Below, piece by piece: positions 4,241-24,425 of a stretch of DNA of 64,000 nt (position 1 is the stretch's first letter; each line of letters starts with the position of its first letter). The DNA is taken from the NCBI GenBank assembly GCA_000165345.1, contig CM000435.1:1088001-1152000 (forward strand), in the 5' to 3' direction. The position numbers were made by a program, and so were the translations under genes. The notes beneath the pieces were generated by a model. The model worked only from the letters and a program-made list of their open reading frames with translations, was not told where the DNA came from and searched no databases.

Positions 4241-5047
4241 ATGTCAACTACAAATCCAACAGAAATTACTACTCAATGGGAGGATCAAATGGTTAAACGG
4301 GGAATATGGGCTCCAAGGGAACAAGAGAAGAAGAATGAAGAATTGTATAAAGAGAGAATTGATGCTTTGGAGTCTATTAATCTTTTTGAAAATGCAAAAC
4401 TAGAGAAACTTATTGATGTTGAGGTTGATAAAGACGAGAGTTTTGAAAAGGAACTTGTTGCGATACGAGCAAGAAGGTTGGCATCCTTGAAAAACAGAGC
4501 CGAAGAAAACTCCAGATTTGGAGAGTTATACTTTATAAGAAAACCAGATTTTGTGAAAGAAGTTACAGAAGCGTCAAAAGATAACACAACAGTTGTTGTC
4601 CACTTGTATAAGGAATCAAATGAGGATTGTCAAATCATAAATCGACTTTTATCTGAGACAATTGCAAAGGAATATGGTAAAATCAAATTTGTTAAGGGTA
4701 TTTCTAGTGATATTGTTCCAAACTATCCAGACAAATCATTACCGACAATGATTATATACAGAAATGGTACAAGTATTTCTCAAATCACAGGTAGTTCAAG
4801 CTTTAAAGATAAGAACAGGAAGATTACTATCAAGTCAATTTTAAAGTTGTTTGTTCAAAACAATGTTATTAAGAATAGTGAAATCACTGAGCATTCTAGA
4901 TTTGAGAAAGGCTCAGAATATTCCAATAATTACTCAAGTAGTGATGATTCTGATTCTGATGATGATAATAGAGACAATGGTAAATGCTATAGTTCCACAG
5001 TTTTTGATAAAATGCAGGATAGAATTAAATACTTACAAAAAATCTAA
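4241..5047 (+). CDS. Phosducin-like protein (PhLP3/TXNDC9-type thioredoxin-fold protein)
   Basis: The track ORF starts at GTG 4232, so the first in-frame ATG at 4241 (MSTTNPTEI) is used. An N-terminal coiled-coil region is followed by a thioredoxin-like fold with VVVHLYKESNEDCQIINRLLSETIAKEYGKIKFVKG...SLPTMIIYRNG, typical of phosducin-like proteins. The tail is acidic and Ser/Asp-rich. Stop TAA at 5045-5047. Confidence 0.7.
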   Translation: MSTTNPTEITTQWEDQMVKRGIWAPREQEKKNEELYKERIDALESINLFENAKLEKLIDVEVDKDESFEKELVAIRARRLASLKNRAEENSRFGELYFIRKPDFVKEVTEASKDNTTVVVHLYKESNEDCQIINRLLSETIAKEYGKIKFVKGISSDIVPNYPDKSLPTMIIYRNGTSISQITGSSSFKDKNRKITIKSILKLFVQNNVIKNSEITEHSRFEKGSEYSNNYSSSDDSDSDDDNRDNGKCYSSTVFDKMQDRIKYLQKI

Positions 5048-6123
5048 AAAGATTTCCAATCTTAAGGCCTGTTTTGCAGTAATCCTTTCTGTTGAGCTGG
5101 GATTTAATGAAGATATTATTAGTTCAAAGAAAGCTTTGTCTTCTTTATTGATAAGTTTTAACAAGTCCCAATTTGTTTTAAAAATAGGAAGAACTAGTCC
5201 AGATTCTGAAATTGAAGGTAAACTCTTTAAATAATCCAAGCTTGTTCCTAATGGAGTTCCAACTAATCTAAAAATACCAAATAGTTGGTCAATCTCATTC
5301 CTCCCATTAAACAACGCCTTTCCAGTTAGGAGCTCCAAAGCTATACATCCAAAGGACCACATATCGCTAGCAAATAGATCATTTGAATTTCTTGTCCCTA
5401 AAAGCCTTTCTGGACTTTTATATTTCAAATTTGTCAAAATCTGAAGTTGTAAAAAATTGAAAAAAAAAACAGTTAATTAGTCAAATTCAAGTATTTTTAT
5501 TGCATCTTTTCACTATTATTTGATATTACTCTATGCTCTCAGATTCGCCTTTTTAATTCAAATTACTATTGTTAGCTGTATTAAACTAAAAAACTTAAAA
5601 CAGTAATTTTCATCAAAAAATAATCCATCATTGAGCAATAAAATAACTATTTTGTTTGTAAATGACTTACCTTGTTGCATTCAATTATCTTATTATTGGT
5701 TTCAGTGGCCATTCCAAAGTCACAAATCTTGATATTGAAATCCTTACTTACTAAAATATTCTCAGGTTTCAAATCATTATGAGCAATTTTGAGGCTATGA
5801 ATATAATCAATTCCTTTTAATATACCAAACAATATCTTTTTCTTCATGAAAAAGTTATTAGCCTCTCCTTGAAGTATTATCTTTCTCAGATCTGCTGGAA
5901 AATATTCCAGGATTATCGTAAATAGTCCATTCTCGTTCATGAAAGAGCCATATGTCTCAACTACATGTTTCCCCCCAAGCTTTCTAAGCAAGGCCTCCTC
6001 TCTTTTTAAATCATCATTTTTCTCAACTGAATTTGCAGTTTTATTAACTATTAGCTTCCCTGATTCCGAATCTCTTAAAAGTTTGACTGTACCGAAAGTT
6101 CCCCCACCAATGAAAAAATCCAT
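5033..6123 (-). CDS. CDK-like (cyclin-dependent-kinase-related) protein kinase, two exons: join(5671..6123, 5033..5440), intron 5441..5670
   Basis: Exon 1 (ATG at 6123) encodes kinase subdomains I-VII: GGGTFG, VAIK-like K, AHNDLKPEN, DFG. It ends CNK|GTAAGT (donor GT at 5670). The acceptor ...TTCAG| sits at 5441. Exon 2 continues ILTNLKYKSPERLLG...DMWSFGCIALELLTGKALFNGRNEIDQLFGIFRLVGTP, which is the CDK-type APE / EIDQLFRIFR-TLGTP region. DFG-to-APE spacing matches CDK2. Stop TAA at 5033-5035. Confidence 0.75.
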
Positions 6124-6249
6124 TGGATACTTTCTTTCCTTCTCGTAGTCAAGATTTTAAACAAATACTTCAATCCATTACGATATTTCTCCTTGTCCTT
6201 TTTTCTGTGCTCATGCTTTTCAGAGACAATTATTTGATTTAGGCACATG

Positions 6250-22833: not shown

Positions 22834-23458
22834 GTAAATACTTTAAATGGCAATTTTTATTCACTTTTATTTGCCTTAGGAGACATTTAAGAAGAAGAAA
22901 TTAACTAATTTCTTCATTATTAACTTTTCTTATCTTTGAAAATGTTATATATTTCTTTTTTTACTCAGTCCCCCCCACATCACTACCTTTTTTTTAATTC
23001 TATATTAATATTTCATAAATGGTCAAAACATAAAAATTTCTATTGAAATATCAAAAGATTATAAACTTGTCATTGAAAATCAAAAATGAGTAAAGGACCC
23101 TATAGAGTTTAATTTTTATAGCTTTATTATTAGAATCGTATTTTACTATTAATTTTAATCACCCCTTGAGTAAATAAAATTTATTAACTGCATGCAATTA
23201 GACTGTATTATTATGTGAAACAAAATACAAATTTTTCAACAAGACAAAATAATTCATCGATTATTTAATTCTTTTAAACTTTATATTTTGTTAAAAATAT
23301 CAAGAAAAATGTCAATTCTGACCGAGTTTTCTTCCAGAATTTAACAATGATATATTATTGAATTGGGTTTTGGCGGGAAGCCAAATTAATTTAATAAAGT
23401 AAATAAATACTGGTATCAATTACATTATGATGTGTGTAAAATAAAATTCACAAGGAAA

Positions 23459-24425
23459 ATGTATGGAAGCATCGGAATATCAATATTTCTATTTTTGTTT
23501 GCGCTCAGATTTTATTTTTGGGTTAGAGGAAGATTTTCTTTTAATGTTGGGAGCAATGAAAAGCTAGAAAGAAAATCGAATTGTGGCGAGAAAGTTAAGA
23601 TATTAGTAGTTTTGGGTTCAGGAGGTCATACAGCAGAACTATTAATGTTATTAAAGGATATGGATTTGAGAAATAAAGTTTCCTTAAGCTGCGTAGTAGC
23701 AAACACTGATAAGTTTAGTTTGGAGAAGGCAATAAATGAATTTTCTGAGAATTTGAAGGTGGACAAAGACAATGTAAGGAACTATGTGGAGTTTTACAGC
23801 ATAAAAAGAAGTAGAGAAGTTGGACAGAGCTATTTTTCATCAGTATTCACGACATTGGCATCTTTTATGGATTCAATGAGGATATTATTTCAAGATAAGT
23901 ATGATTTAATAATGGTAAATGGCCCTGGTACATGCATTCCTATATGCTTTGGGTCTTTGATATTGGAGGTAAGTAATTCTATTAAGAGGGGTTAGATGCA
24001 TGTAAATAGGTAGAAAGTGTACACATTTGAATTAATTACTTTGAAATTACATTAAACAATTTCCCCTCGACCAAAATTATTAAATATATTAAACATATTT
24101 TGAATACTTTTATTATCCCTTTAAAATTATAGTTTCTACTTATAAAAAGCTCAAAGATTGTATTTATTGAAAGCTTTTGCCGTACAAAGACTCTCTCGTT
24201 AACGGGTAAACTATTATTGCCATTTGTAGACAAGTAAGTTAAAAAATGATGATTAAAAAGTTTGAAATTAAAGTTAATTTGACTAATTTATGAATGAAAT
24301 TATTTTCCACTTTATTTAAATTATAAAAATACTAAAAAAAAATTTTTTTTTCAAGGTTTATTGTTTTATGGCCATATTTAGCTGATAAATACCCTAAGTG
24401 CGAATATTTGGGTGTATTATTTTAA
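23459..24425 (+). CDS. ALG14: ALG14 (UDP-GlcNAc transferase membrane-anchor subunit), three exons: join(23459..23968, 24133..24233, 24356..24425)
   Basis: The track ORF starts at GTG 23432; the first ATG is 23459 (MYGSIGISIFLFLF, a TM anchor). The ALG14 signature is present: KILVVLGSGGHTAELL...IKRSREVGQSY...LIMVNGPGTCIPICFGSLILE. Exon 1 ends at GAG|GTAAGT (23969). Exon 2, after TTATAG| at 24132, encodes FLLIKSSKIVFIESFCRTKTLSLTGKLLLPFVD and ends AA|GTAAGT (24234). Exon 3, after ..TTCAAG| at 24355, encodes (K)FIVLWPYLADKYPKCEYLGVLF*. That matches the ALG14 C-terminus (..IVYVES..RV..LS.SGK.L.....FIVQWP.L..KYPK..YLG). Confidence 0.75.

Follow-up and report, generated by a model that had tools for sequence, protein, structure and literature searches.

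Four spliced genes on Cryptosporidium parvum chromosome 7, one of them with a putative small nucleolar RNA-like element in its intron

The 64,000-nucleotide stretch of genomic DNA considered here (contig CM000435.1 of the assembly GCA_000165345.1, forward-strand positions 1,088,001 to 1,152,000), referred to below as the window, is part of chromosome 7 of Cryptosporidium parvum. It has a G+C content of ~30% and contains densely packed long open reading frames (ORFs). Over the 22,176 bp from 10658 to 32833, it shows 100% identity with CP141124.1, which is chromosome 7 of the CpBGF telomere-to-telomere assembly GCA_035232765.1; the position in CP141124.1 equals the window coordinate plus 1,129,104. 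Between window positions 5033 and 24425 there are four intron-containing genes, which are predicted to code for the CMGC kinase cgd7_4850, a genus-restricted 137-amino-acid (aa) Cys-rich protein, the multi-pass membrane protein cpbgf_7004920, and ALG14. Joining their exons yields coding sequences of 861, 414, 2025, and 681 nucleotides (nt), respectively, none of which contains an internal stop codon. Exact-sequence look-up of the four joined proteins returns C. parvum accessions for all four, full length and identical letter for letter.

The kinase gene is found on the minus strand and consists of two exons. Exon 1 (5671..6123, ATG at 6123) ends 13 residues past the DFG motif (subdomain VII), and exon 2 (5033..5440) runs from the APE motif through the stop codon (5035..5033). 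The phase 0 intron between them (5441..5670, 230 nt) starts with GTAAGT and ends with TTCAG. The joined protein of 286 aa (EAZ51605.1/XP_001388412.1/WRK33666.1) matches the Pfam Pkinase domain over residues 5-279 with a score of 160.9 bits. Its best matches among solved structures are CDK3, CDK2, CDK1, and CDK5 (E ~1e-34, residues 5-284). The alignment with CDK2 and CDK3 is free of gaps from DFG to APE, precisely where the intron has been removed, and stays gap-free through the C terminus. An initial annotation of the window, made from the DNA letters and a six-frame ORF list, described the product as CDK-like. This description is valid as to similarity but not as to CDK membership. The kinase has a DFG-to-APE spacing identical to that of CDK2, CDK3, CDK1, CDK5, and PfPK5 and contains a CMGC-type GTP...LP region. 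However, a PSTAIRE-type cyclin-binding helix was not found in it (the aligned segment is ddlkreeallrkl); unlike the CDKs, it reads DDLKREEALLRKL where such a helix is expected and has HND in place of HRD in the catalytic loop. In the alignment, T160 of CDK2 falls near C149/N150, and the kinase has no obvious threonine at the equivalent position. These sequence features support a label that would be more appropriate, namely, a CMGC kinase that is closest to the CDKs but lacks PSTAIRE. In a 2011 kinome survey, cgd7_4850 is a 286-residue protein with Asn replacing Arg in the HRD motif and is listed apart from the CDKs, as an uncharacterized CMGC kinase without orthologs outside Cryptosporidium (PMC3227725).

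Two additional GTAAGT hexamers are located on the minus strand of the kinase gene. The one at 5751 is in frame within exon 1 and precedes the true donor by 81 nt, and the one at 5036 overlaps the stop codon. At its 3' end, the kinase coding sequence converges with that of a phosducin-like ORF: the latter, on the plus strand, ends at 5047, the kinase stop codon occupies 5033-5035 on the minus strand, and the two coding sequences overlap by 15 nt (5033-5047).

The gene for the Cys-rich protein, also on the minus strand, comprises exon 1 (11684..11772, 89 nt), which starts with MECLICF at 11772, exon 2 (11493..11610, 118 nt), and exon 3 (11202..11408), with the stop codon at 11204..11202. Intron 1 (11611..11683) has 73 nt, is in phase 2, and reads GTAAGT...ATATAG; intron 2 (11409..11492) has 84 nt, is in phase 0, and reads GTAAGT...TTTCAG. 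The joined 137-aa protein (EAZ51606.1/QOY40812.1) has no Pfam match, and its homologs were found only in Cryptosporidium. In an alignment of nine sequences, its conserved cysteines and histidine are spread over all three exons. An AlphaFold2 model based on nine orthologs has a predicted local distance difference test (pLDDT) score of 37 and is unusable. In the eight species that were compared, exon 1 always has 89 nt and exon 2 always has 118 nt, and intron 1 ranges from 48 to 91 nt in the other species with its position unchanged. Intron 2 consists of 65, 66, and 67 nt in C. andersoni, C. muris, and C. serpentis, respectively. Because of these three different lengths in sister species, it cannot be a coding sequence.

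The membrane protein is encoded on the minus strand in three exons, 21177..22833, 20977..21087, and 20658..20914. The second one (111 nt) completes a transmembrane helix that begins in the first, and the third one contributes two further hydrophobic segments and a region with a conserved VT..D..I motif. Both introns are in phase 1, intron 1 (21088..21176, 89 nt) with GTAAGT...TTGCAG and intron 2 (20915..20976, 62 nt) with GTAGGT...TATTAG. The joined protein consists of 674 aa (QOY40818.1/WRK33675.1). Its hydrophobic segment at residues 545-573 crosses the first junction, which follows residue 552, and the 557-aa ORF in the ORF list stops within this hydrophobic helix. A library of 1.84 billion proteins contains 120 homologs; there is no Pfam domain in the membrane protein or in the 10 of the 120 homologs that were scanned. 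The distant homologs P0223 and P0252 are colinear with it through exons 2 and 3. The positions of both introns are shared with C. ubiquitum, C. serpentis, and C. bovis, and in C. ubiquitum and C. serpentis, exon 2 likewise has 111 nt and aligns gap-free. These two species use GTAAGT as the donor of intron 2, and C. bovis uses GTATGT; in C. bovis, exons 2 and 3 are located downstream of the deposited stop codon. Intron 1 shows an unusually high 75% identity with C. ubiquitum and contains TGCATGCA and GGCGCGC motifs (21140-21165, minus strand); no similarity is seen in C. serpentis.

ALG14 is encoded on the plus strand. Exon 1 (23459..23968) codes for the N-terminal anchor and the GSGGHT and NGPGTC motifs, exon 2 (24133..24233) for the conserved ESFCR..SL(T/S)G block, and exon 3 (24356..24425) for the FxVxWP...YLG C terminus, followed by the stop codon (24423..24425). 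Intron 1 (23969..24132, 164 nt) is in phase 0 and reads GTAAGT...TTATAG, and intron 2 (24234..24355, 122 nt) is in phase 2 and reads GTAAGT...TTCAAG. The joined 226-aa protein is identical to the deposited C. parvum protein. Its residues 48-225 span the entire Pfam Alg14 profile (PF08660), positions 1-171 of 171, with 204.7 bits against a cut-off of 27 (E = 1.3e-60). The alignment is colinear across both junctions with ALG14 proteins from nematodes, oomycetes, dinoflagellates, and diatoms and with those derived from transcriptomes. The GSGGHT, SREVGQS, and NGPGTC motifs and the C-terminal ES..R...SL.G / F.V.W pattern are invariant or near-invariant columns in the alignment. Near-invariant residues of eukaryotic ALG14 are encoded both in exon 2 (E183, S184, R187, S192, G195, and D203) and in exon 3 (F205, V207, W209, and L212). 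With its hydrophobic N terminus, the full profile, the motifs, and the C-terminal FxVxWP...YLG, the protein shows no notable difference from the ALG14 family. These sequence data support its likely role as the membrane-anchor subunit of the ALG13/ALG14 UDP-GlcNAc transferase in the synthesis of the N-glycan precursor; the cytosolic partner, ALG13, is not encoded in the window. Sequence searches found no solved ALG14 structure. C. serpentis, C. bovis, and C. canis share the codon positions of both introns. The possibility of embedded RNAs in these long introns was considered and rejected: no sequence is conserved relative to C. canis, and C. serpentis and C. bovis have only short introns at these sites.

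All seven introns open with GT and close with AG. In each of them, the incoming reading frame meets a stop codon after 2 to 9 codons (15 codons in intron 2 of the Cys-rich protein gene), and the length is not a multiple of three in 5 of the 7. When the genes were rebuilt from the sequence, the intron coordinates given in the initial annotation proved to be exact for all seven introns, as did the intron lengths of the four multi-exon genes, and the resulting proteins are identical to those deposited. The claim that eight of eight donors are GTAAGT or GTAGGT was right about the hexamers (six GTAAGT and one GTAGGT) but not about their number, which is seven; all seven acceptors end in AG, as claimed. 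The contention that three of the joins restore a family alignment or a transmembrane helix is borne out by the full-length ALG14 profile match, the gap-free DFG-APE region of the kinase, and the helix at residues 545-573. So is the expected damage from relying on uninterrupted ORFs. The kinase is truncated in a 158-aa ORF that ends 7 codons past exon 1, the ALG14 ORF ends after exon 1, and the gene for the Cys-rich protein is represented in the ORF list by just two fragments of 50 and 59 aa.

GTAAGT is the normal 5' splice site of Cryptosporidium and pairs with the U1 small nuclear RNA (snRNA). In this genus, 84% of introns begin with GTAAGT, and the intron length has a median of 61 nt and a mean of 82 nt (PMC2483917, Irimia & Roy 2008). 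The hexamer is not enriched in the window: there are 26 occurrences on both strands versus 23 to 43 expected. Its window-wide abundance, which is within expectation, was therefore rejected as evidence, and the signal consists in the coincidence of the ORF breaks, seven of seven, with a GTAAGT-type hexamer. The introns described here resemble canonical Cryptosporidium introns in that 6 of the 7 donors (86%) are GTAAGT and in being short and AT-rich. No clear branch-point motif was seen in them, and none has been found in C. parvum by others (PMC2483917). They differ in that three of them are long (230, 164, and 122 nt) and that the 230-nt one bears a conserved RNA-like element.

The intron positions recur in two to seven other Cryptosporidium species per intron, wherever this was checked; the kinase intron, between DFG and APE, is present in seven other species (eight in total). 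The exons have no frame-breaking gaps across species, whereas intron lengths differ by numbers that are not multiples of three. In the comparison with C. ubiquitum, the exons of the kinase, Cys-rich, and membrane protein genes show 75 to 89% identity, with a single gap, a 9-nt indel at the C terminus of the Cys-rich protein gene. In contrast, the five introns of these genes show 58 to 75% identity, and four of them contain indels of 1 to 25 nt, with GT...AG retained at the same positions in all five. In the kinase gene, there are no gaps in the exons and 14 gap columns in the intron. The exception is intron 2 of the membrane protein gene, which has 62 nt in both C. parvum and C. ubiquitum, without gap columns.

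Alignment of the kinase intron with that of C. ubiquitum first exposed a conserved block that resembles a box C/D small nucleolar RNA (snoRNA). In C. parvum, this snoRNA-like element (5534..5637, minus strand) consists of a UGCUC/GAGCA stem, a C-box-like AUGAUGG, a putative guide AAAAGGCGAAU, and a CUGA D box. The same layout (stem, C box, variable interior, guide, D box, and stem) is found in eight species, with a total length of 85 to 116 nt and a terminal stem of 4 to 7 bp. The guide AAAAGGCGAAU is invariant, and the 11 nt directly 5' of the D box are unchanged while the remaining intron diverges. Seven of the eight species have a CUGA D box, and C. serpentis has UUGA. C. ubiquitum, C. felis, and C. 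xiaoi possess a canonical C box (AUGAUGA or GUGAUGA); this box deviates at one position in C. parvum (AUGAUGG) and C. canis (GGGAUGA) and at two positions in the gastric species (AUGAUAU). In the terminal stem, 93.8% of the alignment cells are paired, compared with 33 to 62% in controls with slid partners, and both sides have changed in five of the six pairs. However, the three gastric species are closely related, so the cell counts overstate the number of independent events. The C. parvum element folds with its ends paired and has a z-score of -3.44. An Rfam search of the element gives a sub-threshold match to plasmodium_snoR14, a Plasmodium C/D snoRNA (19.9 bits versus a gathering score of 90).

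Like the intron-hosted box C/D snoRNAs of animals and yeast, the element has the orientation of its host gene, a length of ~100 nt, a terminal stem, a C-like box, a CUGA D box, and a conserved guide located 5' of the D box; unlike them, it has a degenerate C box in some species. Box C/D guides follow the fifth-nucleotide rule. By this rule, the nucleotide that AAAAGGCGAAU would select for 2'-O-methylation is the G in 5'-AUUCGCCUUUU-3'. The window contains no site complementary to the guide. A metagenomic eukaryotic contig, L012, carries two U2 snRNA genes (7418-7610, minus strand, and 7819-7918, plus strand), of which one is full-length (152.8 bits) and the other is a weak match (59.6 bits) with CUUCGCCUUUU in stem-loop I. 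The presence of CUUCGCCUUUU makes U2 a candidate target of the guide; this lead concerns plausibility only. The published list of C. parvum snoRNAs, with just five or six of the C/D class, includes the C/D snoRNAs cgd2_3583, cgd5_3935, cgd6_3219, cgd7_1545, and cgd7_5107 and has no entry near cgd7_4850 (PMC12246861). In a small RNA sequencing study of C. parvum (Li et al. 2022), four intronic snoRNAs have been reported, and 23 intronic noncoding RNAs were detected, 19 of them unclassified (PMC9465071). The element could be among these 19.

Taken together, window positions 5033-24425 almost certainly contain four ordinary protein-coding genes with seven canonical U2-type GT-AG spliceosomal introns. 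The analysis establishes the splice signals, the reading frames, the identity to deposited models, the homology across the junctions, and the genus-wide conservation of intron positions. That the seven junctions are the major ones in vivo we infer or take from the literature. Splicing at these junctions would produce the full-length proteins that the curated annotations CpIOWA-ATCC and CpBGF already contain. The CpBGF annotation was curated using Iso-Seq (PMC12179316), and the introns of annotations that hold identical models have been described as supported by RNA-seq or Iso-Seq (PMC8744675, PMC12179316). The annotated gene spans in CpBGF coincide to the base with the predicted ones for ALG14 (967 nt), the membrane protein gene (2176 nt), and the Cys-rich protein gene (571 nt), and the curated C. 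parvum models (CpIOWA-ATCC QOY records, CpBGF WRK records, and the later Iowa II EAZ additions) show no difference from the joined proteins. The four spliced gene models are correct and ordinary, are already present in the curated reference annotation, and contain nothing new in themselves.

Some observations do not favor this gene structure. A branch-site-like YTRAY motif occurs in only 5 of the 7 introns; its frequency in random windows is 42%, which makes the count uninformative. At the join of exons 1 and 2 of the membrane protein gene, distant homologs align only with gaps; this join rests on the continuous helix and the conserved 111-nt exon 2. Finally, deposited models disagree, giving a kinase of 234 aa, membrane proteins of 557, 593, and 665 aa, and ALG14 proteins of 178, 204, and 672 aa, the last one a fusion. 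GenBank contains such alternative models from C. parvum, C. hominis, C. tyzzeri, and C. meleagridis. In the original Iowa II set, the membrane protein (557 aa) and ALG14 (178 aa) are single-ORF versions, and the 593-aa and 204-aa records of these two proteins retain introns. It is quite improbable that at least one of the seven sites has another junction or a retained intron in its major in-vivo product, and all the variants considered (an extra 3' kinase intron, a shifted membrane protein acceptor, retained introns in the membrane protein and ALG14 genes, and an ALG14-gamma-glutamyl phosphate reductase splice) jointly deserve equally little weight. The 234-aa kinase records contain an additional, doubtful 3' intron and lack the region that aligns to subdomains X-XI of CDK2. 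The 665-aa membrane protein model from C. meleagridis uses an in-frame acceptor 27 nt downstream, CCTTTTCAG, which does exist in the C. parvum window (21061-21063, minus strand). However, C. ubiquitum has TTTTCTG with no AG at this place, so it is probably not the conserved site, and exon 2 has 111 nt in three species. Products of intron retention would be devoid of residues that are conserved across eukaryotes or across the genus. In the 672-aa models, found among the C. hominis and C. tyzzeri records, ALG14 is fused to the downstream gamma-glutamyl phosphate reductase gene, although in the window (24411-24551) ALG14 has its own stop codon at 24423-24425 and the following ATG is 125 nt away. 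This conserved stop codon follows YLGVLF, where the ALG14 proteins of other phyla also end, and it has been described for the C. parvum genome that overlapping reads can give rise to false gene fusions (PMC8744675). The fusion models are probably read-through annotation artifacts. The conservation data favor the predicted junctions over each of the alternative models. It was also considered, only because the fragments of each gene fall in different frames, that the ORF breaks might be sequencing or assembly errors or pseudogene lesions. No support for this was found and its probability is negligible: the sequence is identical to the gapless telomere-to-telomere assembly, the breaks are AT-rich insertions of 62 to 230 nt bounded by GT...AG, and their codon positions are shared by up to eight species.

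With respect to the kinase intron, we tentatively suggest that it is long and has been retained throughout the genus as the host of a putative box C/D snoRNA that guides methylation, possibly of U2 stem-loop I rather than of ribosomal RNA (rRNA); the element may account for the length of 230 nt, as opposed to the genome median of 61 nt. It is less likely that the conserved block is not a snoRNA and represents instead an intronic regulatory element for splicing or transcription or another class of small RNA. An assignment of this kind would agree with the Rfam score being far below the threshold, with the imperfect C box of C. parvum and the gastric species, and with the failure of the target search in the window. 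It is harder to reconcile with the order of stem, C box, guide, CUGA, and stem being kept in eight species, with the covariation in the terminal stem, and with the invariance of the 11 nt before the D box amid a diverging intron.

Similar annotation problems are seen in other species. In C. bovis, C. serpentis, C. canis, and chipmunk genotype I, the deposited ALG14 models (170, 191, and 204 aa) stop short at the first intron, as do the membrane protein models in C. bovis (700 aa) and C. tyzzeri and the kinase model in C. felis (177 aa). The gene for the Cys-rich protein is mis-spliced in the deposited C. muris, C. serpentis, and C. xiaoi models, and that of C. muris retains its 66-nt intron in frame. 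The exons that are missing from these models are present and conserved downstream (C. serpentis locus L003, 4001-4800; C. bovis locus L004, 4001-4840 and 700-1250; C. canis locus L009, 3001-3935; and loci L006/L010/L011, 10001-10553, and L007, 15509-16700). The conserved exon structure could serve to repair such faulty ortholog models.

As a discovery, the four genes have no importance: their structures have already been curated, and the kinase was described in 2011. Their practical use is in indicating that correct splice structures can be recovered in the C. parvum genome from sequence alone and in illustrating the failures, in this genome, of annotation that is automated or relies on ORFs only. 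Among the leads, just the snoRNA-like element is of possible scientific interest; if genuine, it would extend the very short list of Cryptosporidium snoRNAs.

In an Rfam scan of the whole window, the only matches above the threshold were three 5S rRNA genes and one tRNA gene. The 5S rRNA genes are arranged in tandem on the plus strand (34479-34598, 35150-35269, and 36061-36180; 102.5 bits each), and the tRNA-Met (CAT) gene is on the minus strand (27820-27895). Paired GGCGCC palindromes are found in two divergent intergenic regions, at 6250-6267 (TTGGCGCCATGGCGCCAA) and at 30630-30651 (TGGCGCCA...TGGCGCCG); they resemble an E2F-like motif that has been reported to precede genes in Cryptosporidium. 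The region at 30433-31851, between a NOT4-like gene and an EF-hand gene, comprises 1.4 kb without an ORF and contains a (TA)n run at ~31201-31223 and two GTAAGT hexamers on the plus strand. A hidden gene in this region was rejected, as no coding potential was seen there; it may represent an untranslated region or a long noncoding RNA. The last third of the window is filled with two very long uninterrupted ORFs, one of 2151 aa at 36880-43335 (plus strand) and one of 6680 aa at 43455-63497 (minus strand).

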